Under the pieces are notes generated by a model. It saw only the letters and a program-made list of their open reading frames with translations, made no database searches and had not been told where the DNA came from. Below are positions 1 to 64,000 of a stretch of DNA of 64,000 nucleotides, piece after piece. The translations under genes and the position numbers were made by a program. Origin of the DNA: an uncultured Gammaproteobacteria bacterium (GTDB taxonomy: Bacteria > Patescibacteriota > Patescibacteriia > UBA9934); contig CAZREA010000001.1 in NCBI GenBank assembly GCA_964599455.1, positions 71,687-135,686 on the forward strand. The letters run 5' to 3'. Positions within the stretch are counted from its first letter, which is position 1. Each line of letters begins with the position of its first letter.

Positions 1-899
1 TCTTTCGTAGACATTTTTTGTTTGGTTACGGGTTGTAACTCAAGAATCTCAAGAGCATTTGTTGCGGTTCCGAAAAAGAGACGCTTGTTTTCGATTACGA
101 GTTTTCCTGGCTGAAGTTTTCGATCGGTGTACGCAAGTTGATGTATCTTTACTTCAATTTTTGCACCATCTTGGAGAATAAATGCGGTTGAAAGTCCAGG
201 CCACGGGGTGTAGGCACGCAGCTTTTGCTCAATGACTTCAGCCGGTTCTTGCCAGTTGATGCGTCCATCTTCACGAGAGAGGAGTTTGCAATAGGTTGCT
301 TGCGGGTGATTTTGTTCTTGAGGAGTAATGGCACCTTGAGCAAGCTTTTTCAGCGTTTCTAAAAGAAGCGGAGCGCCAAGATTGATCACCTTTTCGGTTA
401 ATGATGGCGTCGTTTCGTTTTTTGTGAGAGGGAAGCGTATTTGTGCCAATAGAGGTCCATGATCCATTTCGGCATCAATAAGCATAATGGTGATGCCCGT
501 TTCGTTGTCACCATGAGCGATGGCTGCTTGCATGGGTGAAGGGCCACGCCACTTCGGCAAGAGTGAGGGATGTACATTTATGTTCCCTAAACGAGGGATA
601 TCAAGAATATGCTGAGGGATAATGCGACCGTAGGCAACGATCACAAAGGCATCGGCATTGAGTGTGCGAAGTGATTCGGCGAAGGCGGGATCTTTGAGTT
701 TGGTTGGCTGGAAAACGGGACGATCGGAATGGCGGGTAAGAAAGGTTTGTTTTGTTGCCGGAGGGGTGAGGATCTTTTTTCGTCCTTGCGGTTCATCGGT
801 CTGACAAACAAGACCGACAACAACAAAAAAAGGATCATCAAGCAGTGCTTGTAAAAAAGATGCAGAAAATGCAGGCGTACCAAAATAGATGACGCGCAT
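1..899 (-). CDS. fmt: methionyl-tRNA formyltransferase (3' end runs off window)
   Basis: Manual translation of the minus strand from the ATG at 897-899 gives MRVIYFGTPAFSASFLQALLDDPFFVVVGLVCQTDEPQGRKK...HPSLLPKWRGPSPMQAAI..., a typical Fmt N-terminal domain. There is no in-frame stop before position 1, which is why it is absent from the ORF track. It lies immediately downstream of def, the classic def-fmt pair. Confidence 0.85.
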   Translation of the reverse strand, partial: MRVIYFGTPAFSASFLQALLDDPFFVVVGLVCQTDEPQGRKKILTPPATKQTFLTRHSDRPVFQPTKLKDPAFAESLRTLNADAFVIVAYGRIIPQHILDIPRLGNINVHPSLLPKWRGPSPMQAAIAHGDNETGITIMLIDAEMDHGPLLAQIRFPLTKNETTPSLTEKVINLGAPLLLETLKKLAQGAITPQEQNHPQATYCKLLSREDGRINWQEPAEVIEQKLRAYTPWPGLSTAFILQDGAKIEVKIHQLAYTDRKLQPGKLVIENKRLFFGTATNALEILELQPVTKQKMSTK

Positions 900-902
900 A
901 GA

Positions 903-1382
903 TTATTTTCTTCCCCGAATTTTTTCAGCCCGATCAATAAATAGAATGCCGTCTAAGTGATCAATTTCATGCTGAAAAATAATCGCCAACAGATCGGTGG
1001 CATTGATGGTTTCTTCCACCCCTTGTTCGTTATAGGTTTTGACGGTCACGCTGCGATGACGCTTGACGATGCCTGAACATTCAGGAACCGATAAGCAACC
1101 CTCGGTGCCATTGATCATTTTAAATGATCGTTGCGTAATGACCGGATTAAAAAAAGCACGTGGACCTTGGTCGGGCGTGTCGACAATAATAATGCGTTTG
1201 TGAATGCCTACTTGCGGTGCGGCAATACCGATACCATCTTCTATAGCCATGGTTTCTTTGAGATCCTGCACAAACTGCTCCATGTCAGGCGTAGAAATTT
1301 CCGCAACCGCAATCGGCTGCGAAACAATACGCAGTTGTTCATTCGGTTCTTGAAGTACGGGGTAAGTCGCCATAGGGTCCAT
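903..1382 (-). CDS. def: peptide deformylase
   Basis: 159-aa ORF carrying the three PDF signature motifs GIGIAAPQVG, EGCLSVP and HEIDHLDG. Confidence 0.9.
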   Translation of the reverse strand: MDPMATYPVLQEPNEQLRIVSQPIAVAEISTPDMEQFVQDLKETMAIEDGIGIAAPQVGIHKRIIIVDTPDQGPRAFFNPVITQRSFKMINGTEGCLSVPECSGIVKRHRSVTVKTYNEQGVEETINATDLLAIIFQHEIDHLDGILFIDRAEKIRGRK

Positions 1383-3213
1383 CGAGAGTTAGGGTCCAGG
1401 AGGAGGGAAGTGAGCCGTAGAGGTCGGGTATACCCGACCCCTTGTTAGAAAACGAAGGAAAACGCAGAACAAATGTTTTTTTATCATCCTTCTCTTGTTT
1501 CTGTACGAGATAGGAATCCAATTCTTTTGGTAAATCATCTCCTTTTTTTGAGCTGAGATGCAGCTCATAACCAAATGGCGGTAAGCCATAGGTTTGCCGA
1601 AGATGAAATTCTTTTTCAAGAGCCTGTTCAACGGATAAGAAGTTGGTTATTTCATCCGGAAGCCAAGTTTGTGCGAGGCACTTTGCCTTTTGCCGATGGG
1701 CAAAGAAAGTGAGACGCAGGAGGTGACGAGCGGTATGTTCTTGAGCTCGGAAATTGAGATGATGAAGTGAAAGATCAGTAGCAAGATCAGCGACCAGGTC
1801 AAATTGCTGCTCCATAAACGGAACTGCAAGACTGGTAAAGAAATATTCTGTCGCAATCAAGATGTCAGCTGCCTGCCAATGGTCGTTTTCACCTTTTTGT
1901 GCAAGGGCAATGCGCGCATCAGGGAATGCTTGCTGCAGTGTGTGAGCGACTTTTTCTCCTCCCATGCCAACGTATTTGAGTGTGCGTTTTTGGCAAGAAG
2001 GGCAATGGTCTGGCACCCACATTTCAGCAAAGCATCGGTCACAGACCAAGTCCTCGGCGCGAATAGTAGGGATATTGCCACAAGTACCGCACAGAGGAAC
2101 GTAGCCGCAGGCGCTACACTGCAAGCGTCTGGCTACTCCTTTACGGTTAAGAAAGAGTAGCACCTTTTTTTGGCTCTGTAAAGCCATTTTTATCTCATTC
2201 AAGAGAGTGTTGGTGAGTAGGGGATTCGCCGTGCGTTCTTCTTTATTACGCAGATTGATGATTTGGGGAAAGGTAGTGGCATCAAGTCGCGTCAGAAGCG
2301 GATGAATACACGTGGACGTGGGTGTAGAGACGAGTCGCTGACTCGTCTCTGTCTTATCGACCAAGGTCATATACAGGTCCTCAGGTCGTGGCAACGGATC
2401 TATGTTGATCATGCGAGCCTGGTGTTGCTGGGCAAGAAGAAAAGCAGCCTCACGTGGATCAAAACGAGGATTGCGGCGCTGATTGGCAAATTCATCGTTT
2501 CCCGAACCAAGAACGAGTACATAGCCGAGTTGCCGAGGAAACCAAAGAGCCGCTTGTTTCGTGCCAACTAAAAGAGGAATCTGTCCGTTTCTCCAATCCT
2601 CACAGCGTTGCTTTCGTTGTAGTAATGAGGTCATGCCCGTCACTACGGAAGTGAGGTTTTGTGGAAGATAACTTGCAATACTTTCTGCATCTTTGTCATG
2701 GGGAACGAGAATGAACATTTGCTCTCCTTTTTTTAGTTGTTTTGCTAATCCTAATGCTAGCGCAATACCTACTTCGTTGTCTGCGGCTATTGATAAAAAT
2801 TGTTCATTACGTTGCAGAACATCATGAATAAACGCAATATCTTCCTGTGACAATCGTGCCTGTTGTTTTGTATAGCTGATTGTCCGAGATGTACGAGTGT
2901 TCTTTCTTTCTTCGGGAAGCGCGTAAGCGAAAAGTGAGCTGGGTGATTGAGCAATTATCCGGGCAATATGTTTAATACGCTCGATGTCTTGTGGGGTGAG
3001 ATAGGGTGTTTTCACTACGCGCTCAAGCGTGAGTAAGTTTTCTCTCTCATCTTGTTGTTCGACAACACCACAGACAATGCCGTGTAGTATTCTTCCACGA
3101 AACGAACAAAGAATAAGATCACCAACTTGTACGGTAAGGTGCTTAGGGATGAGAAAATCAAAAAAGGTGCAGTGACGAGGCAAGCGAGTAATCGGATATA
3201 CTCGTGCGATCAT
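1339..3213 (-). CDS. priA: primosomal protein N' (PriA) homolog with degenerate helicase ATPase motifs
   Basis: 624-aa ORF with a PriA-like layout and a Cys-rich zinc-binding insertion (CSACGYVPLCGTCG..CDRCF..CPSC). At the expected Walker A position the sequence reads IAADNEVGIALALG, with no GxxxxGKT. At the DEEH position it reads LVLGSGNDE. The 3' end overlaps the def start by about 44 nt. Confidence 0.7.
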   Translation of the reverse strand: MIARVYPITRLPRHCTFFDFLIPKHLTVQVGDLILCSFRGRILHGIVCGVVEQQDERENLLTLERVVKTPYLTPQDIERIKHIARIIAQSPSSLFAYALPEERKNTRTSRTISYTKQQARLSQEDIAFIHDVLQRNEQFLSIAADNEVGIALALGLAKQLKKGEQMFILVPHDKDAESIASYLPQNLTSVVTGMTSLLQRKQRCEDWRNGQIPLLVGTKQAALWFPRQLGYVLVLGSGNDEFANQRRNPRFDPREAAFLLAQQHQARMINIDPLPRPEDLYMTLVDKTETSQRLVSTPTSTCIHPLLTRLDATTFPQIINLRNKEERTANPLLTNTLLNEIKMALQSQKKVLLFLNRKGVARRLQCSACGYVPLCGTCGNIPTIRAEDLVCDRCFAEMWVPDHCPSCQKRTLKYVGMGGEKVAHTLQQAFPDARIALAQKGENDHWQAADILIATEYFFTSLAVPFMEQQFDLVADLATDLSLHHLNFRAQEHTARHLLRLTFFAHRQKAKCLAQTWLPDEITNFLSVEQALEKEFHLRQTYGLPPFGYELHLSSKKGDDLPKELDSYLVQKQEKDDKKTFVLRFPSFSNKGSGIPDLYGSLPSSWTLTLDGPYGDLPRTSRTE

Positions 3214-3956
3214 AACAGAAATTCCGCAACCACATAGCCGGCATCAAACGGAGATGAAATGCTACGAATTTCTGCACGCGTAGCAAAGCCATCAAGCATG
3301 CCAAAAAGAAGAGAGAGCGAACGATAACTGGCATCATTTTCATTTTCTTTCATCTCTGGTGCGAGTTTTAATAGGCTAGCGGTGCTTTTTTCTTCTAGGG
3401 TGATACGCATCGTTTCTAGATGAGCGACTGATACGTCACCTGTTGCAAGAATAGCGATGCGTTTCGAGCTTTCGCTCAAGACATGCTTCAGAGAAATACC
3501 GATATCGAAATGTTTTTTTGCATCAAATTGTTGTGCAGGAATAATAGGAACAATTTTTATTTTTGTCAGTCGTCGCGATAAGAAAAAAAGTGCTGAAGCT
3601 ACGCCAAAAGGAAGACTCGATTCAGTTGAAAGAGTGAGCGCTACGTCACGATGACGCGCGAATCGCTGCAGAGCATCAATAACCGAAAAGTCAGGATGAT
3701 AGCGAGCGACACTACTTAAATCACCGAATGATGATAGGTCAACGGTGTAGGGGTCGGCAACATCAATGCAGGTGGCGTCAGGATAGGCAAAGCGTGATTC
3801 TGTAATCACCACAATCGTTTCAATTTTTCGAGCATACCACTCATCGGCCAGCTCTTCGAGGGCGGTGACTGCTTCCTGTACCTCTGCTCGTTTGTGTTTG
3901 TTGACACTTTCAAGAAGAAGAGGAGAAGAAGGTGCGAATGCAGCGGTGATAAGCAT
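3210..3956 (-). CDS. hypothetical conserved protein
   Basis: 248-aa ORF in operon-like continuity with priA (4-bp overlap). I recognise no diagnostic motif. Confidence 0.4.
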   Translation of the reverse strand: MLITAAFAPSSPLLLESVNKHKRAEVQEAVTALEELADEWYARKIETIVVITESRFAYPDATCIDVADPYTVDLSSFGDLSSVARYHPDFSVIDALQRFARHRDVALTLSTESSLPFGVASALFFLSRRLTKIKIVPIIPAQQFDAKKHFDIGISLKHVLSESSKRIAILATGDVSVAHLETMRITLEEKSTASLLKLAPEMKENENDASYRSLSLLFGMLDGFATRAEIRSISSPFDAGYVVAEFLL

Positions 3957-3963
3957 AGAAAAT

Positions 3964-5370
3964 CTAATTCACACTTGCCGCCTGCACCTCATCATCAATA
4001 GCGGTATCAAGGGTATCACCGAGCGGGTGGAGTTCAAGAACATTATCGGCAATGACCATGACGTTTTCCCAGGCATAGCCATATGACGTAAAGACCGATT
4101 CTGAGGCAATCGGCAAGCGTTCGCCATCGGCAATGACGTAGACCGCAGGTTCAGAGGGTGAACGTACAAGCACGCCATCAGGCAAGGTGACAGGTGATCC
4201 TTCTTTAAATTGTTCAATCTCAGTTGGCGTGGCAGCAGTTAATCGATATCCAGGGAAACGAATAGTAAGAAGCGTGGCATCAAAAAGCGGGTGACGTATA
4301 CCGTCTTGCACATAGAAAACTGCACCATTGGTAGAGAGTTGGTACAAAGCTCCTTCCGGAGCAATGGTTTTTAAGGTGATGCTGTCGCCCAGATCGTATG
4401 TAGCCCGATCTGTATTGCTAACTGAAACGATCTCATCTTCAGAGAAACCGATTTTGCGGAAGGTTTCCATGGAGTCAATTGGTCGTAGTGCATCATCGAC
4501 CAGTAAGAAAATAGTGCCATTTTCATCTTGTAAGAGTGAGTAGTTGGGGAAGGAAATGGCATCACCTTCGGGATAGCTTTCCAAAACGGTTTTGGAAACT
4601 TGGACAATCAAATCAGGATTAAAACGTGATCGCAATGCGCTTTCTGACGTGATAGGGCGTCGGTATCCATTCTGCAAAAGATACACACCCTCTTCTCCTG
4701 GCACTTGCATTAATGTTCCACTGGGATATTCGCGTCCAAACCATGTTTGCCACAAGTAGGCAAAGTTTTTGTTTCCATGTAGATGCGGTGTGTAGGCGTA
4801 TAACGCTGCAGTGGCCGCATTTTCTGGAGTCACCTTCTCGCCGTCGATGGTGACGGTGATGTCGGGGCCATATTTTCCGGCGGTGTAACCATGAGCGGCA
4901 ATATCGGTAAGGTAGCCTTCGGTAAATTGTAAGGCTGTGGAGTTGATTTGCTTGCCAAAACCTTGCCAACGCTGCACGGCTGGATCGTTCATGCTGCAAT
5001 CATCACAAACGCCATAGCCCATTGCCCAATCCAATTGCTTTTGCGTTGGATCTTCATCCTCAATCAAACTTTGTTCTTTTTGCAGCATGACAAGAAGTAC
5101 CTTCGGGTTGATGCCGTGATTTTGCGAGGCATACCAAATAATGTCCGCCGCCCAACGTTTTCGCCCCTCATGATCTTCCAGGCGCATAGAGCCCAGCGCT
5201 CCTCGAGTCGAAAGAAACGCACGAATTTGATTGAGGTCCATGCCATACGAGTCGGTCATCTCCTCATCGGAGATAATGTAGTTTGGATCAAAGGCCAGTG
5301 CTGAAGAAAAAGGGAGAAAAACCGTGGTTGCCAGAAGAAAAGCAGAAGATAATCGTTGGAGTCGGTTCAT
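3964..5370 (-). CDS. secreted hypothetical protein (signal peptide)
   Basis: The ORF has an N-terminal signal-peptide-like segment, MNRLQRLSSAFLLATTVFLPFSSALA, when translation starts at the internal Met (5370). The longest ORF starts at 5388. Confidence 0.5.
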   Translation of the reverse strand: MNRLQRLSSAFLLATTVFLPFSSALAFDPNYIISDEEMTDSYGMDLNQIRAFLSTRGALGSMRLEDHEGRKRWAADIIWYASQNHGINPKVLLVMLQKEQSLIEDEDPTQKQLDWAMGYGVCDDCSMNDPAVQRWQGFGKQINSTALQFTEGYLTDIAAHGYTAGKYGPDITVTIDGEKVTPENAATAALYAYTPHLHGNKNFAYLWQTWFGREYPSGTLMQVPGEEGVYLLQNGYRRPITSESALRSRFNPDLIVQVSKTVLESYPEGDAISFPNYSLLQDENGTIFLLVDDALRPIDSMETFRKIGFSEDEIVSVSNTDRATYDLGDSITLKTIAPEGALYQLSTNGAVFYVQDGIRHPLFDATLLTIRFPGYRLTAATPTEIEQFKEGSPVTLPDGVLVRSPSEPAVYVIADGERLPIASESVFTSYGYAWENVMVIADNVLELHPLGDTLDTAIDDEVQAASVN

Positions 5371-5524
5371 ACACGGAGAGTATAGCAAAAGCGGACCCTT
5401 GTGAGGAGATCGCGCATGTCATTGCGAGGTAATCCATGATTCTTTGAAGGTTGCCGAAGTAATCTCTGAGGACGTGCAGTTACCTCTTCACCTGATTCTT
5501 TTTTCCTGCTACGCTATTCCCACT

Positions 5525-27167: not shown

Positions 27168-27494
27168 CTAAGTATACTCCTTCCAAATCTCTGTTCGTAA
27201 TTGGCATTGCGGATGAACGGTTAGTGCAGGAAAAGCACATTCTAATGCGCGAGCAACATCATGAGCTGTTTTTTGCATAGCATACATGGCAGCAGCATGA
27301 CGACAAGCAAAAAGCAAAGTGCCATCTTTGTAACTCACGATACGCACATCGTTCACAAGTGGCGTATCGGCAGCGATCTCAACAAACAAACGATTTGCTT
27401 CCGCAATTACTCGGGAAGCAGTGAGTTGAGCACCAATGTGATGACGCTTGCTGAAGGAGGACAGCAGGGATGGCAGCGCTTTGGGAGTCTTCAT
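27168..27494 (-). CDS. DUF721 (DciA-like) family protein
   Basis: About 110 aa. The pattern ..ASRVIAEANRLF..NDVRIVSYKDGTLLFACRHAAAMYAMQ resembles the DUF721/DciA core. The start is moved to give an ATGA overlap with the helicase-nuclease stop. Confidence 0.4.
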   Translation of the reverse strand: MKTPKALPSLLSSFSKRHHIGAQLTASRVIAEANRLFVEIAADTPLVNDVRIVSYKDGTLLFACRHAAAMYAMQKTAHDVARALECAFPALTVHPQCQLRTEIWKEYT

Positions 27495-27496
27495 AG

Positions 27497-30466
27497 TTAC
27501 ATTTTTGCTGCCGGACAAATATCTTTAAAATCACAATATTTACAAATTCTCTCATTCGGTGTGGGCGTAAAATCTCCGACGCGAATGTGAGCGATTGTTT
27601 CTCGAATTTCTTCACGCAATTTGTCTTTGTCTTTATCGGTAGGAACAAAAGAAACCGTTGTATTATTTTCTAAATAATAATACGTCAAGGCTTGCACAAG
27701 CATGGGTGGTGCAAAACACTGTTCAGCCGCAAGTGCATAGAGCACTAATTGTCGCTTGTCGTCCCATTCCAATTTTGTTTTTGGACTTCCGGTTTTATAA
27801 TCAATAATTTCCACTCCACCTTCAACGGTATCAATACGATCAATACGACCTTTCACCGCAATATCATCAATTTTTAAATGAAAACTCGCTTCAAGCTTCC
27901 ACGGCTTGGGAATATTTCCTACAAGACGCTCATAAAAATCTTTTAAAGAGGCTCGACCCAAATTTCGATATTCTTCTTTTATCTCCGCCGATGGATACCA
28001 TTCATCAATGAAATGCGCGTCGTAGAGGGTAAGCAATTCTTGCAAAGAAGGTAGCGTGTTGGAAGCCCCAGTTTCACCAAACAACGTTACTTGCACCGCT
28101 TGTTGCGAATGCATAAGTTGTTCGAGATAACGTTGTAAGGTGTTGTGCATGCTTTGCCCAAAAGACAACTGATGTCGGCCAAAGGTAGGAATATGCAAAA
28201 TATGCGCGTACCGATATTGCGCCGGACAAGAAGCAAAGGAAGAGATTTGCGAAAAGCTTAATTGCTTTAACGCCTGCTCAGGCACAGAAAATGGTAATGG
28301 CGTTGTAGGAGTTTTATCAATAAATGATAAAGAGACTGGCTTTTCTTTCTTTTTAGTTGAGGGAGTTGATTCGGCAAGAAAACCCAATTCCTGTAAGAAA
28401 CGAGAAGGTTTGCGCAAGCGACTTCCGCCATAATCATCGGCAGAAAAAAGAAAGAGACCTTCTTTGGCACGCGTCATAGCCACATAAAAAAGTCGACGCT
28501 CTTCCGCAACGTGATCGTCGAGTTCGGGCGCTTCCCTTACAAGACCCGGAGGCAAGGGCAAGGCTTCCGTTCGTGATACGGAAGGAAAACGCTGTTCGAT
28601 CAAATTAACCACAAACACATACCGAAATTCTAAACCTTTTGCCGCATGCACCGTCATCACATGCACCACATCTGGTCCACCTTCGATATCAGCAGCAACT
28701 TGTCCACCCTCACCTGCCTCACGCTCGGCATCAAATTCTTCCAAAAAGGCACGGATATGCTTTTGCTCAGGATTCATTTCTACAAACCGCTTGATGCGTG
28801 CTAAAAATTGTTCGAGTTGCCGATACATTTCCTGCTGCGTTCGCTCATCAAAGAAAGCAACATCCGCCAACAAGCCGCTCTGCTTAAGTGCGGTGACCAA
28901 AAACTCGGTCGCACTTTGCTGTTTGGCAGCGCGGTTCAACGTTTCTAACAATCCTAAAATGGTAAATAAACGATTGCGCCCTTCCATACTTAAACCCATG
29001 GCATCGCTAACGCGCCGCATAGCTTCAAGAAGCGGCATGCCTTTGCGTCGAACGAAAAAGAGGAGCGCCTGTACGTCTTGTTCCGACAGTCCCAAACGTG
29101 GATGCGATAAAACGCGATACCACGCTGGTCCATGATAAGGCTCGACTGCCACGCGCAGATAGGCTAACAGATCGAGAATAAGCGGCTTACTGTAAAGTCC
29201 CGACATGGCCGAAAAACGAAACGGAATACCAAAACGTTCAAACGCCTCTAGAAACGGTTCCGCTGAATCATTTGCTCGCACGAGCAAACAAAAATCTCCC
29301 CAATTCGCCTCGCCCTTCTCGACGAAATCCAAAATCGTCCGCACCGCCGCCTGTACTTCATCGTTTTGCGTTGGCATGTGTATATGCTTCACAAAACCAG
29401 CATGTGGATGATGTGAAAGCAGTGCTTTGGAAATTCCTTCAGCAACTTCTAATCGGTGAGGATTGTTTTTGGTGATGAGCGTATAAGCGGCATCAAGCAC
29501 CTCTTTGGTACTGCGATAATTTTCAACGAGCACGACACGTTTAGCATCAGGAAAATCAGCACGAAATTGTAAAATGTTTGCGAGCGCCGCGCCACGGAAT
29601 TTATAAATCGCCTGGTCATCATCACCCACGACCGTAATATTCCGTTCTTTCCCGGCCAACAGTTTTACCAGCTGATACTGAATACTGTTGGTGTCCTGAA
29701 ATTCATCAACGATAATTTGTTTAAATTGCTCTTGATATTCTTTTAAAATATTTGGTCGCTTTTGAAATAGCTCAAGTACATTGAGAAGTAACCCTCCAAA
29801 ATCCATCGCGCTTTGTTCAGCAAGGAGTTGCTCATAGGTTGCATATGCAGCAGCCAACTCACGCCACTTCAGCATCTCTACCTTTGCTTCATCAGTAAGC
29901 GTTGTGAACGCCTCGGGTGCACCACCAGATTTTTCCGTCAGTATTTCTTCTACCCGCGTTGCATATGCAGAAGGAAAAATTCCTTCATCTTTACAACGAG
30001 AAAAATGTTTCAACAGTTGCTGTAAGAATTTGGTTGGATTGCCTCGTGGACGGAAATATTCAAGCGCAAAACGATCAAGATATCGACGAACCAAGAGCCA
30101 CGTATCAATCTCGTTGAGCAAGCGGAAATCGGGAGATAGACCAATATGTATAGCGTGCATGCGTAAAACCTTTTCACAAAAAGCATGAAAGGTGGAAATA
30201 TGGACATCAACATATCCCATTGGCAACAAACGATCGACACGCTCCTCCATTTCCGTCGCCGCTTTATCGGTAAAGGTGAGGGCAAGAATTTCGTGCGGTA
30301 ACACCTTTTTAGTTGCCAGTAACCAAGCAATACGCCGCGTAATCACCGTGGTCTTCCCCGTTCCGGCACCCGCAATAATCATGAGTGGTCCTTGGGTATG
30401 AGTAACCGCTTCACGTTGCGCGGCATGAAGATCGATCAGTAAATGCTCGGCATCATGATGCTCCAT
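27497..30466 (-). CDS. UvrD/PcrA-like helicase fused to C-terminal Cas4/AddB-like Fe-S PD-(D/E)XK nuclease
   Basis: 989 aa. The N-terminus has the UvrD Walker A (IIAGAGTGKTTVITRRIAWL) and further SF1 helicase motifs. The C-terminal about 250 aa carries a RecB-family nuclease core (IDRIDTV, EIIDYKTG) plus a four-Cys cluster: one Cys upstream (FASCPAQYRY) and CKYCDFKDIC at the C-terminus. Confidence 0.8.
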   Translation of the reverse strand: MEHHDAEHLLIDLHAAQREAVTHTQGPLMIIAGAGTGKTTVITRRIAWLLATKKVLPHEILALTFTDKAATEMEERVDRLLPMGYVDVHISTFHAFCEKVLRMHAIHIGLSPDFRLLNEIDTWLLVRRYLDRFALEYFRPRGNPTKFLQQLLKHFSRCKDEGIFPSAYATRVEEILTEKSGGAPEAFTTLTDEAKVEMLKWRELAAAYATYEQLLAEQSAMDFGGLLLNVLELFQKRPNILKEYQEQFKQIIVDEFQDTNSIQYQLVKLLAGKERNITVVGDDDQAIYKFRGAALANILQFRADFPDAKRVVLVENYRSTKEVLDAAYTLITKNNPHRLEVAEGISKALLSHHPHAGFVKHIHMPTQNDEVQAAVRTILDFVEKGEANWGDFCLLVRANDSAEPFLEAFERFGIPFRFSAMSGLYSKPLILDLLAYLRVAVEPYHGPAWYRVLSHPRLGLSEQDVQALLFFVRRKGMPLLEAMRRVSDAMGLSMEGRNRLFTILGLLETLNRAAKQQSATEFLVTALKQSGLLADVAFFDERTQQEMYRQLEQFLARIKRFVEMNPEQKHIRAFLEEFDAEREAGEGGQVAADIEGGPDVVHVMTVHAAKGLEFRYVFVVNLIEQRFPSVSRTEALPLPPGLVREAPELDDHVAEERRLFYVAMTRAKEGLFLFSADDYGGSRLRKPSRFLQELGFLAESTPSTKKKEKPVSLSFIDKTPTTPLPFSVPEQALKQLSFSQISSFASCPAQYRYAHILHIPTFGRHQLSFGQSMHNTLQRYLEQLMHSQQAVQVTLFGETGASNTLPSLQELLTLYDAHFIDEWYPSAEIKEEYRNLGRASLKDFYERLVGNIPKPWKLEASFHLKIDDIAVKGRIDRIDTVEGGVEIIDYKTGSPKTKLEWDDKRQLVLYALAAEQCFAPPMLVQALTYYYLENNTTVSFVPTDKDKDKLREEIRETIAHIRVGDFTPTPNERICKYCDFKDICPAAKM

Positions 30467-30467
30467 A

Positions 30468-31895
30468 CTATAAGCCCGCCGCTAAACTACTTGCAGCTTG
30501 TACAAATACCTGAAGTCCCTGAGGTGTTAATAGCCACAGTGCAAAGCCAATATGTACCGCTACCAACATCCAAACCAAAACTCGGTACAAAGTATATAAA
30601 TCATTCCCGTCATGCGATACGGATGATGAAAAAAGGGGAGGTGCATAAAGCGAGAATGCTTTCATGACCATACCCAGCGAAATCACGGTAAAAAATATGA
30701 CCCATCCTGGCTCTTGCTGTAACCCGTAGCCTAAAGAAAAAAACAAAAAAGGAAAAGGTGCGCACAACATGACGAGAATAGGAACTTTCTCGATCTTTTC
30801 CTGTTCATCAGTTTCTTGATTTTTTACAGAAAGGAGGAACGATCCAACACCAAAAAGCATCGTTGGTAATAACATGAGTGCGGCAATAATTCCCGCCGGA
30901 CCCGTACTTGCGGTCAGGAAAAAGAGTGCTATCAGGAACATCTGCAGGAAGTGAACGAAAGCAAAACGCGCAGACTTGTGCCATACCAACAAAAAGCTGT
31001 AGGCAAACAGCACGATGCCCACAAAAAGATAGACCCCAAGTACCCATCCGTTTTGTTGTAAGACAACATCGAGCACATATCCTAAACGCAGCATGTGCAC
31101 AAGGCTGATAATGGGAAGAAAAAGCATGATAAGCGTGCGCAATGGTTCAGCAAAGACACGATGCTTTTCAAAAAAGACCGACAAGAAAGGTACCAACCCC
31201 GCAACAAGCAACAATCCCATGCTGCTCAGCAAAAAACCAAGCTTCATCAGCAAGACATGATTTTGTGCTACCTGGGCCGCAATTGAAGTAATTTGACTCA
31301 TGTCCGCAAGCATCGTATAGGTCCAAGCCCACTCTCCATGCGCCAAAAAGATCGCCGTACTAACCGCACCATATCCGATTATCACGAACAGTAAACCTAT
31401 ACTACTCAAACGAACACATCGTTCAATGCCCTTCCAATCAGGAGATGGCAGCCCACGAACGCCATGCACAAGGCAAGTTACGAGTGCGCCCACCATACCG
31501 ATGATGACGAGAGGCAACGCATCGGCGAGCAAGGTTAGGAGGAGAAAAAAACCACACAGAAAGAAAGCCGTGATATGGCGCATGAGCATGATGCGCGAAA
31601 GAACACCCTTTTTGTACCCATCTGCCCAAGAAAATCCAGCAAACAGAGAGATCATCATGAACATGCTCGCAAAAGCAAGTAAACAGAGCGCAGTTGTAAA
31701 ATCCACCTTTAACGTCGCCAAAGGGGCATAGACTGCTACCACTCCCGACAGATGAGGAATCGCGAGTGCAAGAATGGCTATAGCATCAATCAATACCATT
31801 CCAAAAAAACCCATGCGCATGGAGCGTTCTTTGCACGGTATCAGCGGCAAGAGTGCCGAAAGAAAGAAGAGAAGAAGGATGGCGACAGGGGGCAT
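30468..31895 (-). CDS. polytopic membrane protein (possible antiporter-like paralog)
   Basis: 475 aa with at least 12 TM segments. It is adjacent to, and weakly similar in pattern to, the upstream NuoN/MrpD-like gene. Confidence 0.4.
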   Translation of the reverse strand: MPPVAILLLFFLSALLPLIPCKERSMRMGFFGMVLIDAIAILALAIPHLSGVVAVYAPLATLKVDFTTALCLLAFASMFMMISLFAGFSWADGYKKGVLSRIMLMRHITAFFLCGFFLLLTLLADALPLVIIGMVGALVTCLVHGVRGLPSPDWKGIERCVRLSSIGLLFVIIGYGAVSTAIFLAHGEWAWTYTMLADMSQITSIAAQVAQNHVLLMKLGFLLSSMGLLLVAGLVPFLSVFFEKHRVFAEPLRTLIMLFLPIISLVHMLRLGYVLDVVLQQNGWVLGVYLFVGIVLFAYSFLLVWHKSARFAFVHFLQMFLIALFFLTASTGPAGIIAALMLLPTMLFGVGSFLLSVKNQETDEQEKIEKVPILVMLCAPFPFLFFSLGYGLQQEPGWVIFFTVISLGMVMKAFSLYAPPLFSSSVSHDGNDLYTLYRVLVWMLVAVHIGFALWLLTPQGLQVFVQAASSLAAGL

Positions 31896-31899
31896 AGAT

Positions 31900-33522
31900 T
31901 TAGAGAAAGAGGCTCAAAAGAATAATCACGAGCACCACGAGAACGAAGACTGCACTCGTGGGTGCTATCGTAGCTATGTTGTCAGCCCCGTGAGTTACGA
32001 CACGATCAGCATTCAAGAACAAACGCTGTACGCGAGTAGTCACTAAAGCGATTCCTTTTTGAATAAACACATCTAGACGCTGGAGAAATGAAATGATTAT
32101 TTCCGAAAGAGTACTTATGTGTTTTTTGATCAAGGTAACAAGAACAGGTTTTTCGTGTTGCAACACCGTGGCAATCGTCACAACAAGCATGAGTATCAGT
32201 GTGGTGTAGGTAAAGAGTTTTATGGGCGCCAATGAGGCTGTACCAAAAACGATCACTCCCTCCGAAACCAAATCCGTACCCAATGTCACGAGTAAGAAAG
32301 GAAGAATGGGGATCAAGAAAAGATTGGCAATACATGCCAGAAAGAGTCCATACCACTTCATTCCTTGATAATTATTCATTGTGTTTTCGGACGATGCTTG
32401 AGAAAGCAAGATTTTCCTTATCAATGTCAGCAGCATTACGCCGATCATGAGTCCGGTCATGATCAAAACAATGGCTATAAACACTGAAAAAGAAGAAGCT
32501 TGTGGAAGCGCTGCAATTGTTCCCGTAAAGAAAAGCCACATTGCCGACCACATGACTGATCCGGGTAGTCCCACGGCAAACAAGGCAAGCATCGTCCGCG
32601 TCCATGATGTTGATGAAAGCTGAAGCAGCACCTCTGTGCTCAATACTCGAGCCAAGATCATGAAGAAACAGGCAAAGAGCAATGCCTGAACCGGTTCAAA
32701 AATACCCAACGCTCCAATAAGGAGTGTCATGGCTGCAGCAATAAGGATGAGGACAAGTTGCGCTTGTCCCATGCGCTGCCAAAAAAGTTCAGCCGAGGCA
32801 CGCAAAAGACGATAGCTTGCACCTACCCCCCCAAGGAGCAACACACCCAAAGTCACCGTAAAAAGAATTGGCTCACTGCCTGTCAATAAAAAGAGGGTGA
32901 GACGGAAGAAAATGTAGACAGCAGCGATATCCAAGCCAACAGGTAAAACAACGGCAATCATTCCCAGTCCAGTAATGATCGCAATAGTTCCAAGCAAGAG
33001 TGTTTGACTAGGAAGTTGAGGAATGATCATCGCCATGGTAGGAAAATCAACCAACAATGCCCCACCTGATAATGCCAAAAGTCCACCGCCCAACAAAAAG
33101 ATTCCGGCAATGGCTAAACCCTTGTGAGCAATGGAGGATGAGATTGCGAGTGTACACAACAGGACCATGCTCGAGAGCAGCAGTACCACCATGCTCGAAG
33201 CCGTCAGTACCCCTAACGCCGATAGAAAGGTGATGAAAAAGAGAACGGGATGTATCTTCCCTCTCCTTCCTAACCATTGCCAAACTGCCGAGATCGAGAG
33301 TAAACAAACAAAAATGGCCGCAAAGCGATCGAGCGTAAAGCCCAGTCCATACAACATGGTCCACGCGGTTGAAGGGAATTCTATCAATGTTTTCCAGCCC
33401 ATCAACACCTCAAACCCCGGAAAAAAGACCGCTCCAATAAGCACGAGTCCGAGAACTCGACCAAGAAACCCGCACACCTTTCTCCCCGAAAATGACCAGC
33501 GCATAGGCAAAAAAGACATCAT
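31900..33522 (-). CDS. proton-conducting antiporter-like membrane subunit (NuoL/M/N-MrpD superfamily)
   Basis: 540 aa with about 14 TM segments. The sequence AISSSIAHKGLAIAG matches the conserved SS[IV][AS]H[ML]G signature of complex I antiporter-like subunits. Confidence 0.45.
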   Translation of the reverse strand: MMSFLPMRWSFSGRKVCGFLGRVLGLVLIGAVFFPGFEVLMGWKTLIEFPSTAWTMLYGLGFTLDRFAAIFVCLLSISAVWQWLGRRGKIHPVLFFITFLSALGVLTASSMVVLLLSSMVLLCTLAISSSIAHKGLAIAGIFLLGGGLLALSGGALLVDFPTMAMIIPQLPSQTLLLGTIAIITGLGMIAVVLPVGLDIAAVYIFFRLTLFLLTGSEPILFTVTLGVLLLGGVGASYRLLRASAELFWQRMGQAQLVLILIAAAMTLLIGALGIFEPVQALLFACFFMILARVLSTEVLLQLSSTSWTRTMLALFAVGLPGSVMWSAMWLFFTGTIAALPQASSFSVFIAIVLIMTGLMIGVMLLTLIRKILLSQASSENTMNNYQGMKWYGLFLACIANLFLIPILPFLLVTLGTDLVSEGVIVFGTASLAPIKLFTYTTLILMLVVTIATVLQHEKPVLVTLIKKHISTLSEIIISFLQRLDVFIQKGIALVTTRVQRLFLNADRVVTHGADNIATIAPTSAVFVLVVLVIILLSLFL

Positions 33523-55581: not shown

Positions 55582-56091
55582 ATGCGCACAAAACGCGAAC
55601 AGATCGAATCTTTCAAGGAACTTTGGAAGAAAGAGTACGACCAAGATTTAACCGACGATCAGGCGTTGGAGTATTCCGAGAATCTCCTGGGACTTTACCG
55701 AACTTTGCTCGACGTTCATGTAAGGATGGAACAGTGGAAGGAGCGGCTTATCAAAGAGCCCGATGGATTCGCGGTGACCAATCAGGGTACTTATTCGTGT
55801 GCCGTTTGTTCGCAGCACATGTTCAACGATGAGGGCTGGTATGACCAATTCGGCATTAAGTGCCCTGTTTGCCAGAAGGCCGTGAAGGAAGGCGTGATCC
55901 CCGGAGAAGTCGCCTGCAAGTCCGATACCTGGTTATCATCGGATGATCTCAAAAAGAAGTTCGGTTGGCACCATACGACTGTCGCCAAGAAAGTGCGGAA
56001 CGGCGAGCTCAAGGCGCGGCAGATCAAGAATGGCGAGCATCATTGGTTCTATGTGTTTTTGAAGGAAGAAAATCCGGACATTAGCCAATAG
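55582..56091 (+). CDS. hypothetical Zn-ribbon protein with C-terminal HTH-like segment
   Basis: The sequence CAVCSQH...CPVCQK forms four Cys. The C-terminal LSSDDLKKKFGWHHTTVAKKVRNGELKARQI is HTH_17-like. The start is uncertain (ATG 55582 chosen; the longest ORF starts at 55456). It converges on, and overlaps, the CD-NTase 3' end. Confidence 0.4.
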   Translation: MRTKREQIESFKELWKKEYDQDLTDDQALEYSENLLGLYRTLLDVHVRMEQWKERLIKEPDGFAVTNQGTYSCAVCSQHMFNDEGWYDQFGIKCPVCQKAVKEGVIPGEVACKSDTWLSSDDLKKKFGWHHTTVAKKVRNGELKARQIKNGEHHWFYVFLKEENPDISQ

Positions 56092-57442
56092 GTACATTGA
56101 CACTGCCTTTTCCAACAAGCATTCCCGTAGAATTCTCAACTAAGTATGCCTCTACATAATGAGCGCCCGAATAAGAAGTCGTCTCCTTTTTGCGATACGA
56201 ACCTTGGTCACGAGTAATCTCTCCACGAAGTTGCCCCTTCGCGCGAGCCTCTTCGCCCGTGTTGCGCACCTTCCAATAAAGAGTATGACGCGATTTATCG
56301 ATATTTCTCGGTGGCTTCACGAAGAATTGAAGAGTGGCATTCTTCAACAGCATGTTACCGATCATTGAGAGTCGCTTTCCAAGAAACTTCATACGCTTGA
56401 TGTCTGCATCGACCACCAAAACAAGTAGAACAGGAGCGGTTCCACTGATGTAGTTCTCGATAAAGTCTTCTTGAACCGAGGGAAAACGAACAGCAACGGC
56501 GAATGGCGAAATAGACAGCAAGGGAGACGCTGCCTTTCCAATGACACACTCGTCGCCAAAGATGTCAATCATTTCGGCTTCAAAGTCCTCATCGCTGGAA
56601 GTCAGAGCATCAAGAATTCTTGATGAGTATCCATCAAATTTCTCTCGGAAATTTTCGTATTCCTCCTGTGTCCAGTGACGGGAGGTGAATTTCTCGCTCA
56701 TCAATGCTGGATTGTATACATCCGGCATGTCCTGGTTAGCCTGAAGATATCCGTTCAATCGTGAGAGGATGGTTTTACAAGTGGTTGCGAGATCCGCATA
56801 CAGGCGCTGGTCATCGGCATGATTAACCTGCAGGCCGAGTAATGTCGTTAATACTATAGACTTTACCTTGAATGTACCCTTGTAATCGCGAAGGTATTTT
56901 ACGAGACGAACTACTTTAGAGAGATTTCCGTTAGTGATTGCATTTTGTGAGGCAAACCACTCTGCATACCCGTCTCCATCCGTAGGTTCAGATTGGTTTG
57001 TATTCTTGTTAAAGATAACCTTCTGGGATCCAACCTGCACACAAGGGACGATATCGATATGAAAATCGCTTTCGTAATCCAGTGTTACGCAACGAGTCTT
57101 ACCTCGTCGGTCTACGATGTCGCGATAACGATCCATGCCGTAGAAAAAATCGTGTAGGTGCTTAAGGTAATCCTTCGGCTCCCACCCAGCGACTTCCTTC
57201 TGTATAAACAGCAGGTCAAGGTCGAAATCGTCATCTTCGGCAACAGGCCGAATGGCCGTGTCATTGCGAAATGACCCTTGCGGAACCAAATCGACGAAAA
57301 GATCCTTATAAGGATCGTTATTCTGAAGAAGGCCGGTGACAACCTCGATTCCTTTGTGAATGCGCTCAACGCGATTTTCATTCAGGGATACGCAGTCACT
57401 CACAAAGGATTCAAGACAGTCATTGATTTCTTTCTGTGCCAT
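56081..57442 (-). CDS. SMODS-domain cGAS/DncV-like nucleotidyltransferase (CD-NTase) with C-terminal extension
   Basis: The sequence VPQGSFRNDTAIRPVAEDDDFDLDLLF matches the CD-NTase GS-x4-TA[IL]-x-[DE]h[DE]h pattern. A third acidic motif, DFHIDIVPCV (hDhVP), lies about 60 aa later. A roughly 150-aa C-terminal region of unknown fold follows. Confidence 0.6.
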   Translation of the reverse strand: MAQKEINDCLESFVSDCVSLNENRVERIHKGIEVVTGLLQNNDPYKDLFVDLVPQGSFRNDTAIRPVAEDDDFDLDLLFIQKEVAGWEPKDYLKHLHDFFYGMDRYRDIVDRRGKTRCVTLDYESDFHIDIVPCVQVGSQKVIFNKNTNQSEPTDGDGYAEWFASQNAITNGNLSKVVRLVKYLRDYKGTFKVKSIVLTTLLGLQVNHADDQRLYADLATTCKTILSRLNGYLQANQDMPDVYNPALMSEKFTSRHWTQEEYENFREKFDGYSSRILDALTSSDEDFEAEMIDIFGDECVIGKAASPLLSISPFAVAVRFPSVQEDFIENYISGTAPVLLVLVVDADIKRMKFLGKRLSMIGNMLLKNATLQFFVKPPRNIDKSRHTLYWKVRNTGEEARAKGQLRGEITRDQGSYRKKETTSYSGAHYVEAYLVENSTGMLVGKGSVNVPIG

Positions 57443-57447
57443 ATAGA

Positions 57448-58590
57448 TTAGTTAAGAGTAATCGTTGGTCGGTATTCACCATCAACAAGATCGTGAATCA
57501 CCACTTTAGGAGCGACATCGCGAAGAAGCTCTCGACCGCAGATGATGGCGATCGGTGCAGGAACCGCGAGAAAGAAGTGCACTTTCTCAACATTTCTATG
57601 ACGTGATTCAAGCAGCGACAAAAATTCCTGGAAAGTGTTCCGGAAGTTTTCCAATGTCTTTGGTGAACGTAGGAGTGTTCTGCTCGGCGGCACATCAATT
57701 GGTTCGATCTGGTAGACGATTCCGCCACCCATCGATTTCTCGACCTTATCAACCTCACCTCCGCTGATTGAAGCAAGGAATGCTATTTTGTTGCCACTCT
57801 GTTTTCCGTGCTGGGAAATTTTAAACTTCACCTCAGCACCATCTTCCGGCCAGATCCATCCCTCACCGTCATCTCTATGCTTTTGATAAAGGCTGATCGG
57901 GACTTTGTCACCAAGGTGATAACCGAAGAAACAAAGAAGTGGAATGCGGGCAAGTGAAAACACAGAAAGACGCTCGATATCCCCGCGCTCGATTTGTGGC
58001 AGGATTTGCTCTTGCAGTACGGTCTTGATCTTAGCAGTACCCGCCTTCCAGTAATCCCTGTCGCCGGTATCCGCGATTTTTCCGAGGTCAATGTCGATTA
58101 TTCGCTGGTCGGTATAGCGTTTTTCATGCTTAAACACCGCCGGGTACACCTCACTGTCTGACATCTTTGTGAGATTTCCCCTGACTTGTCCCAACAAACG
58201 GATTACGTGCGTTTTCGCTGTTGCCGGAATACTTGTCAAAAGTGTCATGCGATCTTCGTGCTTCTGTTTCCACTCCCGAAGAAGATCGACTGGAAAATCG
58301 GGGACATGTTTCTTCTTATCTATAAGCGCATGATGCTTGGTGCACATCAGCATCAAGTTTTCCGGTTCAGACCGCTTTTTCATTGGCAGTGGGTGATCTC
58401 CTCGAGGTCCCTTGCGTGAATCTCCGACAATGTGCGCAATATTTCCAAGTCGTGCTTTTTTATGAGTCAGCGATTCAACCATGACCCCCTCGGGGCAGCC
58501 GTAAAACGAGCAGCGACCAGCGGCTGCAACGTATACTTCAAGAATGGTTGCCTCGGAAATCGCTGGCGCTTTTTCTTCTCTTTTTGCCAT
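57448..58590 (-). CDS. Cap5-like CBASS effector (N-terminal HNH endonuclease + C-terminal SAVED-like domain)
   Basis: The N-terminus has HNH motif elements (CSFYGC..., NIAHIVGDS, ENLMLMCTKHHALID). The roughly 260-aa C-terminal remainder has the size of a SAVED sensor domain. It sits 5 nt upstream of the CD-NTase gene. Confidence 0.6.
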   Translation of the reverse strand: MAKREEKAPAISEATILEVYVAAAGRCSFYGCPEGVMVESLTHKKARLGNIAHIVGDSRKGPRGDHPLPMKKRSEPENLMLMCTKHHALIDKKKHVPDFPVDLLREWKQKHEDRMTLLTSIPATAKTHVIRLLGQVRGNLTKMSDSEVYPAVFKHEKRYTDQRIIDIDLGKIADTGDRDYWKAGTAKIKTVLQEQILPQIERGDIERLSVFSLARIPLLCFFGYHLGDKVPISLYQKHRDDGEGWIWPEDGAEVKFKISQHGKQSGNKIAFLASISGGEVDKVEKSMGGGIVYQIEPIDVPPSRTLLRSPKTLENFRNTFQEFLSLLESRHRNVEKVHFFLAVPAPIAIICGRELLRDVAPKVVIHDLVDGEYRPTITLN

Positions 58591-58591
58591 A

Positions 58592-59266
58592 CTAACTCCA
58601 GTTCACGGTCGGTTTTTTAAGAACGAACTTTACCTCACCTGCCACGAAGAATTTATCGGAGTCTTCCGGATGAAGAAAGATTGGCGGGTTAGGTTCTGTG
58701 GATTCCGAGAGAAGCGCGATCTCCCCCGTCTGGTCGTTCTTGGAGAATCGCTTGATGTTCGCCAGACCTTCGAGCACAGCGACGATGTAGGAACCCGACT
58801 CCGGATTGCGCTTGGTGGAGTCGATGATGACGTAGTCGCCGTCCTCGATGCTGTTCTTGCGATCTCCCGCCTTTGCAGCGTTCATGGAGTTGCCGCTTGC
58901 GCGAAGGGCGAACAGCTTCTTTCCCGGATGGACGAGCTTCGCTGAGACCTGAAGGAAGCCTTCCACCACGTCTTCCGCGTACAGACTTGCGGGACCGCAG
59001 TTTGCGGCACCAAGGATCGGGATGGAGTTCAGAGAAAGATTGTCACCGCGGTCATCAAGTGCAGTCACGACACCGCCCTCTCCCTTTTTAAGATGCCCCG
59101 ACGCGTAAAGCTGGGAAAGGTGATAGCTCACGCCGCTTGGGTTCTTGATACCAACGGCGTCCCCAATCTGCTGGAGGGACATATCGCCCAAGTTCCGGCT
59201 ACGGGCGAGGGCAAGAAGTTTGCGTTTTGTCTCATGCATACGGGTAAATACTAGCTTGCTTTGCAA
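58592..59266 (-). CDS. LexA/CI-like S24-family repressor
   Basis: The N-terminus has a winged HTH (LQQIGDAVGIKNPSGVSYHLSQL). The C-terminal S24 peptidase domain has the Ser nucleophile in ASGNSM and the Lys in LANIKRF. Its stop lies 1 nt before the Cap5-like start. Confidence 0.8.
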   Translation of the reverse strand: MQSKLVFTRMHETKRKLLALARSRNLGDMSLQQIGDAVGIKNPSGVSYHLSQLYASGHLKKGEGGVVTALDDRGDNLSLNSIPILGAANCGPASLYAEDVVEGFLQVSAKLVHPGKKLFALRASGNSMNAAKAGDRKNSIEDGDYVIIDSTKRNPESGSYIVAVLEGLANIKRFSKNDQTGEIALLSESTEPNPPIFLHPEDSDKFFVAGEVKFVLKKPTVNWS

Positions 59267-59296
59267 ATCCTTTCAAGTCCTGTAATATTGCGGTAT

Positions 59297-59830: not shown

Positions 59831-59856
59831 CCCAACATCCTGCGGACAAGGTTTGG

Positions 59857-59885
59857 AAACAGCCGAAAAGACGGCTGTTTTTTGT
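59857..59885 (+). terminator. rho-independent terminator
   Basis: aaacagccg-aaaaga-cggctgttt followed by TTTTG. Confidence 0.65.
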
Positions 59886-59922
59886 ATTGGAGCGGAGGCT
59901 CGGGTTAATCGACGGTTAAGCG

Positions 59923-61242: not shown

Positions 61243-61245
61243 TTT

Positions 61246-61665: not shown

Positions 61666-61674
61666 TCCTTACTT

Positions 61675-63204: not shown

Positions 63205-63206
63205 GT

Positions 63207-63986: not shown

Positions 63987-64000
63987 AGGTGAAGCTTTTG

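Follow-up and report, generated by a model that had tools for sequence, protein, structure and literature searches.

Background

Two previously described systems are closest to the protein reported here. One is the natural PriA of Deinococcus radiodurans, which has no ATPase or helicase activity, binds single-stranded DNA (ssDNA) as well as fork DNA, and forms complexes with DnaB (PMC4504706). In Deinococcus PriA the lysine of the GKT signature is replaced by arginine, and motifs I and II are poor matches (PMC4504706). The survey that defined this pseudohelicase covered 100 genera from 18 phyla and predates the time when genomes of the Candidate Phyla Radiation (CPR) became common (PMC4504706), and a standard review treats Deinococcus-Thermus as the sole exception among PriA proteins (PMC5778457). 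The other consists of the Escherichia coli PriA variants K230R and K230A, which have no ATPase, helicase or translocase activity and are near wild type in vivo (PMC5778457). ATPase-dead E. coli PriA supports PriA-PriB restart (PMC5778457) and loads DnaB in vitro together with PriB, DnaT and DnaC (PMC10175261). Here we describe a priA gene from an uncultured member of the Patescibacteria, located at 1339..3213 on the minus strand of a 64-kb stretch of contig CAZREA010000001.1 (the window, meaning the whole 64,000 nucleotides analysed). Its product has the PriA fold, whereas every class of ATP-binding and hydrolysis motif has been erased, and the gene probably encodes a pseudohelicase that recognises forks without unwinding them.

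A natural PriA pseudohelicase is therefore already known from Deinococcus-Thermus, and the present finding was conceptually anticipated both by Deinococcus and by the priA300 allele of E. coli. What is new is a more degenerate and apparently independent case in a much larger radiation. Literature searches that paired PriA with Patescibacteria, CPR, Parcubacteria, Saccharibacteria or Uhrbacteria, or DciA with CPR, returned no prior description, and no published natural PriA pseudohelicase besides that of Deinococcus was found in the literature searched. One of the papers retrieved mentions priA merely as the neighbour of a novel family in phylum UBP6 (PMC10849945).

Gene product and domain architecture

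The gene and the domains of its 624-aa product are placed in the window as follows.

1339..3213, minus strand: probable PriA ortholog of 624 aa without ATPase/helicase signature motifs (predicted pseudohelicase), from an ATG-start open reading frame (ORF), homology and fold
2914..3213, minus strand: 3'-end DNA-binding domain (3'BD, aa 1-100), PF17764 E 8e-9
2800..2913, minus strand: short linker with one helix (aa 101-138) replacing the winged-helix (WH) region, from alignment and the AlphaFold2 (AF2) model
2359..2799, minus strand: RecA-like lobe 1 (aa 139-285), predicted to be catalytically dead, from alignments
1579..2313, minus strand: RecA-like lobe 2 (aa 301-362 and 412-545), enclosing the cysteine-rich insertion, from alignments
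1981..2127, minus strand: cysteine-rich region (CRR, aa 363-411), predicted to hold two zinc ions, from invariant Cys residues
1342..1578, minus strand: C-terminal domain (CTD, aa 546-624), alpha/beta in the model and less conserved, from AF2 and Foldseek

The first-pass annotation, made from the sequence letters alone, had proposed an ORF at 1339-3213 with the overall layout of PriA, and both the ORF and the layout were borne out by Pfam, NCBIfam and PDB matches and by structure prediction. The PriA 3'-end-binding domain (PriA_3primeBD, PF17764) was matched above its gathering score, and Pfam returned no match to PF00270 or to a DEAD/ResIII helicase domain in the 624-aa protein. All NCBIfam priA models match the protein at E 1e-17 to 1e-46 but score far under their equivalog cut-offs, as with TIGR00595, for which the score was 138.1 bits against an equivalog cut-off of 230. 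A phmmer search of PDB sequences returned PriA chains only (6dcr, 8fak, 4nl4 and 6dgd, E ~1e-22). The AF2 model, built from 39 homologs, has a predicted local distance difference test score (pLDDT) of 88 and a predicted TM-score (pTM) of 0.90, and PriA structures fill the first nine places among its Foldseek matches in the PDB (E 5e-32 to 2e-25, TM 0.63-0.72), with Mfd as the next family at E 3e-11. The best of these matches is 6dcr, an engineered PriA with the WH domain deleted (TM 0.69/0.68). The 624-aa protein is a PriA homolog with a clear PriA fold, comprising the 3'BD, two RecA-like lobes, the CRR within lobe 2 and the CTD.

Loss of the ATP-binding and helicase motifs

Motifs were compared with those of E. 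coli K-12 PriA, and the correspondences agree between HMMER and three independent MAFFT alignments. The segment SIAADNEVGIALALG (aa 141-155) aligns with the E. coli Walker A motif GVTGSGKTEVY, and YVLVLGSGNDEFAN (aa 231-244) aligns with E. coli VIVIDEEHDSSY. The aligned motifs are given below.

Motif I: E. coli GVTGSGKTEVY; window protein IAADNEVGIAL (former motif I, IAADNEVG, at nt 2767-2790)
Motif Ia: E. coli VPEIGLTPQ; window protein VPHDKDAES
Motif II: E. coli VIDEEHD; window protein LVLGSGNDE (former motif II, VLVLGSGNDE, at nt 2491-2523)
Motif III: E. coli LGSATP; window protein NIDPLP (former motif III, IDPLPR)
Motif V: E. coli IGTQMLAKG; window protein IATEYFFTS (GTQxxxKG lost, Thr kept in ATEYFF)
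Motif VI: E. coli QVAGRAGR; window protein RLTFFAHR (arginines lost)

The ablation of Walker A and of the DEEH box claimed in the first-pass annotation is thus confirmed, with the aligned strings as quoted there, and the loss is wider than those two motifs: Ia, III, V and VI have disappeared as well, and the protein has no WH domain. Neither alignment nor a regular-expression scan for GK[ST], a glycine-rich loop, DExH/DEAD and GRxGR placed an intact motif anywhere else in the 624-aa protein. No motif is hidden by a frameshift, because the alternative frames at the former Walker A site hold stop codons. In the AF2 model, strand 139-143 and helix 146-158 are joined with almost nothing between them, the acidic residues 'DN' forming the junction, so that no P-loop remains in the structure. 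Overall, all classes of residue for ATP binding and hydrolysis are erased, namely the P-loop glycines with the Lys/Thr pair, DExH, the coupling residues of motif III and the arginine fingers of motif VI.

Retention of DNA-contact elements

What has been kept are elements with a DNA-contacting role in PriA and in other SF2 helicases, while those that contact ATP were erased. In the 3'BD, the pocket triad F18-D19-F20 aligns with E. coli F16-D17-Y18; within the clade the F and D are invariant and the third position is Y in 47 of 48 sequences. In E. coli, Asp17 and Tyr18 bind the terminal 3' nucleotide (PMC5778457). Lobe 1 retains the aromatic-rich loop (ARL) RRNPRFDPREAA at nt 2443-2478, and the ARL columns P, R, [YF], D and R are kept in 149, 130, 122, 125 and 124, respectively, of the best 150 family representatives described below. 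The same loop crosslinks to the fork junction in E. coli PriA (PMC5778457). Among these 150 representatives, motif IV (FLNRKG, pattern N-[RK]-K-G) is also retained, with N426 in 143 and G429 in 135, as are the motif V threonine T539 (144/150) and the motif Ia proline (145/150).

The zinc-binding insertion that the first-pass annotation described as Cys-rich and intact is present with all eight cysteines. It has the pattern CxxC-x5-CxxC-x12-CxxC-x9-CxxC, in which C366, C369, C375, C378, C391, C394, C404 and C407 are invariant in 39 aligned homologs; four CxxC pairs were found in 123 of the best 150 representatives, and the CRR is the most conserved domain of the protein (mean conservation 0.72). 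In the cryo-EM structure of E. coli PriA with PriB and a fork, the CRR, HD2 and CTD frame a pore around the lagging-strand ssDNA (PMC10175261), and counterparts of the CRR, lobe 2 (HD2) and CTD are all present in the window protein. The last ~15 residues of the CTD are disordered in the AF2 model, and the Foldseek alignment to PriA is full-length. The Pfam PriA_C model had no match in the window protein, though it is matched in Parcubacteria-type relatives.

There is no WH domain. The stretch that links the 3'BD to motif I has ~40 residues, compared with 122 in E. coli, and forms a single helix (123-134) in the AF2 model; this linker (aa 101-138) is the least conserved stretch of the protein. 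Some motif-intact PriAs (P0050 and P0051) likewise have only ~51-55 residues at the WH position, which shows that loss of the domain is not confined to this clade and that its presence is not universal.

Distribution of the motif-less PriA and selection

The close relatives recovered by an initial homolog search, 48 clusters in Patescibacteria/Uhrbacteria metagenome bins with 32-48% identity (E < 1e-85), all lack PF00270 and share an identical motif state. A scan of one genome per GTDB species then gave 33 species genomes with a motif-less priA, mostly titled Uhrbacteria or Patescibacteria, with some labelled by their submitters as 'uncultured Gammaproteobacteria' or 'Kapaibacterium'. The ORF is full-length and intact in 31 of the 33 loci and is cut by the contig end in the other two. 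Three independent contigs carry exactly the same protein. L033 and L034, which at 23-26% identity are the syntenic members furthest removed, have no motifs either. The substitutions are thus shared by the sister genomes, none of which has intact motifs, as the first-pass annotation had proposed to check.

We also ran an exhaustive HMMER search with the clade profile against 1.84 billion representatives clustered at 50% identity, which yielded 15,047 matches at E <= 1e-3 and 6,059 at E <= 1e-30; the best 150, all at E < 1e-74, were analysed. In these 150 representatives, neither GxxxxGK[ST], nor His at the DEEH position, nor R584 or R587 was found (0/150 in each case). Lys occupies the K230 column in 19 of the 150, never inside a glycine-rich loop. 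A second profile search, made with more canonical-looking members, again returned motif-less proteins of the 'Parcubacteria group' and 'Patescibacteria group'. The canonical PriAs in the same match list, among them those of Bacillus, Peregrinibacteria and Desantisbacteria, served as a positive control: each of the five motif regular expressions finds its match in them.

The alignment forms a graded series from canonical through Parcubacteria-type and intermediate to Uhrbacteria-type sequences, the last of which include the window protein and have nothing left. Parcubacteria-type proteins keep a vestigial Lys, D-E-E and GTQ and are without the P-loop glycines and motif VI arginines. In a neighbor-joining (NJ) tree, the Uhrbacteria-type and intermediate sequences form one cluster and the Parcubacteria-type sequences another, beside the canonical PriAs; since this is a midpoint-rooted tree of BLOSUM distances with long branches, it is compatible with one loss or with several.

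Selection was estimated from the ratio of nonsynonymous to synonymous substitution rates (dN/dS), calculated pairwise with the NG86 method for the closest species pairs. For the whole gene dN/dS was 0.09-0.13 at dS ~0.9-1.3. By domain it was 0.05-0.11 in lobe 1, 0.04-0.14 in lobe 2 and 0.01-0.12 in the CRR, the dead RecA-like lobes being as constrained as the 3'BD and the linkers alone being relaxed. The motif-less state is therefore lineage-wide and under strong purifying selection, and is neither an error nor a pseudogene.

Outside the main family, several remote PriA-like proteins of 640-780 aa (P0052/P0059, P0055, P0069 and P0071) have variously degenerate motifs, for example TDAKNALK with DDPLH, GLPDDERYS with DKENS, KGPGSKQ with EGEDD and SNHPYDRME with DHEHD. 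Loss of the PriA ATPase motifs may, to judge from these strings, have occurred repeatedly in uncultured lineages. A further protein, the 897-aa P0239, is a Parcubacteria-type motif-less PriA with 62% identity to P0200 and an additional HD-domain match (PF01966), and appears to be a PriA pseudohelicase fused to a metal-dependent phosphohydrolase domain.

Genomic context

The neighbours of priA in the window are listed below.

2..899, minus strand: fmt (methionyl-tRNA formyltransferase), truncated at the window's left edge, Formyl_trans_N/C E 7e-40
903..1382, minus strand: def (peptide deformylase), PF01327 E 3e-46, overlapping the 3' end of priA by 44 nt
3210..3956, minus strand: upstream neighbour of 248 aa, LigB/Memo-superfamily protein, whose TGA stop overlaps the priA ATG (ATGA)

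The priA-def-fmt context, which was not mentioned in the first-pass annotation, recurs throughout the family. A full-length fmt was seen on an exact-match contig. In 29 loci out of the 33, def is the downstream neighbour of priA; the remaining four (L014, L022, L030 and L032) end shortly past priA. The canonical order in Bacillus cytotoxicus is coaBC-priA-def-fmt-rsmB, and on an 812-kb contig a distant Patescibacteria PriA that likewise has no motifs stands in the order LigB-GT4-priA-def-fmt. The canonical priA of Peregrinibacteria does not adjoin def, so the priA-def arrangement, though common, is not found everywhere. Since the motif-less gene stands at the ancestral priA locus, it is probably the PriA ortholog of its lineage. 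A tblastn search with E. coli PriA revealed no second PriA in the window.

Upstream, the order clpB - ppa - 474-aa gene - 248-aa gene - priA - def is common to all 33 loci as far as contig extent permits. The 248-aa neighbour, translationally coupled to priA through the ATGA overlap, was found upstream in 33/33 loci and in the distant Patescibacteria genome. We considered it as a new primosome partner and rejected this, since its membership of the LigB/Memo superfamily (class III extradiol-dioxygenase-like) makes a role as replication factor improbable. Of 14 orthologs, 12 match PF02900 (LigB), with a profile match to PDB 5hee at E 3e-14, and the copy in the window itself is too diverged for a Pfam LigB match. 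Directly upstream, at 3964-5388 on the minus strand, is the gene for a 474-aa protein whose N-terminus has a hydrophobic, signal-like segment and which has no significant Pfam match (only EccB, E 0.0018). Every locus that extends far enough has it just before the LigB-like gene (41-71% identity), and the distant Patescibacteria genome has a 482-aa counterpart. A 98-aa ORF at 641-937 on the minus strand, with weak tblastn matches in close relatives, lies within fmt in another frame and is thus probably no gene, the matches probably reflecting conservation of the fmt DNA.

Comparison with other PriA proteins

The window protein resembles the Deinococcus-Thermus PriA pseudohelicase (Lopper et al. 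2015, PMC4504706) in being a probable PriA ortholog whose Walker A and Walker B motifs are non-functional, and the residues at both positions appear incompatible with ATP hydrolysis. The Deinococcus-Thermus lineage is without PriB or DnaT, and fork binding followed by hand-off to DnaB without unwinding would be expected in both cases. The loss is far more extensive in the window protein, which has lost motifs I, Ia, II, III, V and VI as well as the WH domain (624 aa in total). The phylum also differs (Patescibacteria), so that an independent loss is likely; the named relatives of the window PriA are all Uhrbacteria, Parcubacteria or Patescibacteria, and the tree covers these types and canonical PriAs. 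The Deinococcus case is known from biochemistry, whereas the present one is known from sequence.

The E. coli variants K230R, K230A and K230D (priA300-type) show that the scaffold is separable from the motor, as we propose for the window protein. They are, however, engineered point mutants of an otherwise intact helicase, whereas the window protein is natural and has no P-loop at all. They also depend on PriB and DnaT and fail in the PriA-PriC pathway, and the window protein presumably has other partners. To our knowledge, PriB and DnaT are restricted to some Proteobacteria.

With canonical PriA (4NL4, 6DCR, 6DGD, 8FAK) the window protein shares the 3'BD, two RecA lobes, the CRR in lobe 2, the CTD, the ARL and motif IV, and with the canonical PriA of Firmicutes it shares the priA-def-fmt operon position. 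It differs from them in having no ATP-binding or hydrolysis motifs and no WH domain, and in its TIGR00595 score (138 vs 230 bits). Like actinobacterial PriA (PRK14873 models) it gives a near full-length alignment to NF011453 (residues 2-505, E 2e-26), but its score of 92 bits against a cut-off of 812 indicates that it is not a member of the actinobacterial family. The NCBI name for the PRK14873 models is 'primosome assembly protein', not 'helicase', and UniProt presumably carries a caution that mycobacterial PriA lacks detectable helicase domains. Actinobacterial PriA may thus be another non-helicase lineage; our literature search for mycobacterial PriA and Walker motifs returned nothing specific.

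Proposed role and alternative explanations

Our favoured explanation, which we regard as reasonably probable, is that the gene is a Patescibacteria priA ortholog turned pseudohelicase, acting as an ATP-independent scaffold for fork recognition and helicase reloading. The scaffold-only role had been put forward in the first-pass annotation and appears to be a reasonable reading with published precedent that was not cited there (D. radiodurans PriA and priA300/K230R). Under this model, abandoned forks and D-loops would be recognised through the 3' end of the nascent leading strand and the branch point, and the lagging-strand ssDNA would be clamped or enclosed by the protein. The protein would then recruit the replicative helicase DnaB by acting as a landing platform independent of ATP. 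Recruitment could be direct, which is what has been reported for D. radiodurans PriA, or could run via the SSB tail or the loader of the lineage. Unwinding of the lagging-strand duplex would be unnecessary or would be handed to another helicase. If so, a large bacterial group probably restarts replication with a PriA that recognises forks but does not unwind DNA.

Several points weigh against the scaffold model. For every member of the family we infer fork binding, the absence of ATPase activity and partner binding from sequence. The equivalent of E. coli Lys61 in the 3'BD pocket is not conserved in the window protein, and with the WH domain also missing, fork affinity or specificity may differ from those of E. 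coli PriA. The inspected DNA is 64 kb of a ~481-kb contig, and an intact second PriA may lie elsewhere in the genome. Neither DnaB, SSB, a confirmed DciA nor another gene of replication or restart was found in the window. Finally, the former motif sites hold new residues that are conserved in the clade (PRERDAE, GNDEH, D-LPR-E and ATEYFFSS), so that a new function is possible.

This last point is the main argument for a neofunctionalised PriA derivative, in which the old ATP cleft has been rebuilt to bind a partner (DnaB, DciA or the SSB tail) or a non-nucleotide ligand and the role is no longer equivalent to that of a PriA scaffold. The residues at the former motif sites are non-random and clade-specific, with mean conservation of 0.75 at Ia, 0.70 at V, 0.60 at VI and 0.57 at II, and dN/dS in both lobes, at 0.04-0.11, is as low as in the 3'BD. 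However, buried RecA-lobe residues would be expected to stay conserved simply because the fold and the DNA-binding face are kept, the new residues are not the same in the Uhrbacteria-type, intermediate and Parcubacteria-type proteins, which resembles drift after loss more than a single new conserved site, and the ancestral operon context is unchanged; we therefore consider neofunctionalisation unlikely. Somewhat less probable again is that the motif-less gene is an accessory paralog, acting as a regulatory or dominant-negative fork binder, with a canonical ATP-dependent PriA encoded elsewhere. Only 64 kb of the genome is visible, and some CPR-affiliated lineages (Peregrinibacteria) do encode a canonical PriA, but it is the motif-less gene that holds the ancestral priA-def-fmt locus, as priA does in Bacillus, no second PriA lies within the window, and all recovered PriA matches named Patescibacteria or Parcubacteria are motif-less. 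CPR genomes are also small and poor in paralogs, which counts against this explanation.

Continued use of nucleotide through a non-canonical site, as a cryptic ATPase or an ATP-binding switch, seems very unlikely. For E. coli PriA a further nucleotide site, weaker than the first, has been put forward (PMC5778457), and Parcubacteria-type relatives keep the Lys of the K230 column and a D-E-E remnant. Yet the proposed E. coli site has never been located structurally (PMC5778457), and the window clade has no Lys/Thr pair, glycine-rich loop, DExH or arginine fingers and places acidic residues in the former P-loop. A decaying pseudogene or an assembly or sequencing artefact, with which scores under every NCBIfam equivalog cut-off would agree, is effectively refuted by intact ORFs in 31/33 loci, dN/dS of ~0.1, the eight invariant cysteines, a high-confidence AF2 model and the identical protein on three independent contigs.

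Returning to the scaffold model, we tentatively extend it to a large part of the CPR, comprising at least the Uhrbacteria-type and Parcubacteria-type lineages. These may have dropped the PriA motor and WH domain, leaving a minimal PriA of 3'BD, inert RecA lobes, CRR and CTD; the recognition step would then be intrinsically ATP-independent, and the replaced ATP-site residues could form a new docking surface for DnaB, DciA or SSB. If this is true, helicase-free PriA is a major evolutionary mode and no mere peculiarity of Deinococcus, and it marks the irreducible core of what PriA does. That the whole ATPase apparatus has been erased in a second lineage, one far larger than the first (at least 150 clusters at 50% identity), supports the view that the conserved, essential job of PriA is to recognise forks by their structure and to reload the helicase rather than to unwind DNA. 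This lineage also offers a natural 'minimal PriA', with neither WH domain nor motor, for structural and biochemical dissection, which bears on how DnaB is reloaded in bacteria without PriB, PriC, DnaT and DnaC. For annotation, such genes fall under equivalog cut-offs, and many are labelled 'hypothetical protein'.

Other genes in the window

Two further genes in the window had been linked to replication restart.

27497-30466, minus strand: fusion of UvrD and PD-(D/E)XK domains, AddA/RecB-type; PF00580 E 4e-80, PF13361 E 9e-46, PF12705 E 6e-39
27168-27518, minus strand: ORF of 116 aa adjoining the UvrD-nuclease gene, DciA candidate with a sub-threshold Pfam match

In the first-pass annotation these were described as a DUF721/DciA-like loader candidate beside a UvrD-nuclease fusion, hinting at a remodelled replication-restart toolkit. 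The fusion is real, with N- and C-terminal domains of a UvrD-like superfamily 1 (SF1) helicase followed by a PD-(D/E)XK nuclease, as in AddA/RecB-type proteins. The loader remains a putative DciA: the 116-aa ORF matches Pfam DciA (PF05258) at E 0.15 with 12.8 bits against a cut-off of 24, below the gathering score. At E <= 0.01 Pfam returned nothing for this ORF and at E <= 10 it returned DciA alone; a homolog search retrieved only the ORF's own protein, and a single-sequence AF2 model was unusable (pLDDT 47). DciA is an ancestral and common loader (cf. PMC9825169), so its presence would not indicate remodelling in any case. The idea of a remodelled toolkit is not upheld, the fusion being an ordinary AddA/RecB-type enzyme of double-strand break (DSB) resection and the DciA match being sub-threshold. 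Directly upstream of the AddA-like gene, at 30468-33522 on the minus strand, are ORFs of 475 aa and 540 aa without Pfam matches, which could be a split or highly diverged AddB-like partner.

A SMODS/DncV-like cyclase carrying an AGS_C sensor domain (56081-57442, minus strand) lies directly downstream of a SAVED-domain protein (57448-58590, minus strand). This pair, at 56081-58590 on the minus strand, looks like an anti-phage pair of the cyclic-oligonucleotide-based anti-phage signalling system (CBASS) kind. From 58000 to 64000 the GC content is 0.52-0.53, compared with ~0.45 elsewhere in the window, and this region carries an N6/N4 DNA methylase (59923-61242, plus strand) and a T4-type terminase large subunit (61675-63204, plus strand). 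This right-hand end of the window is probably a prophage or another mobile element.

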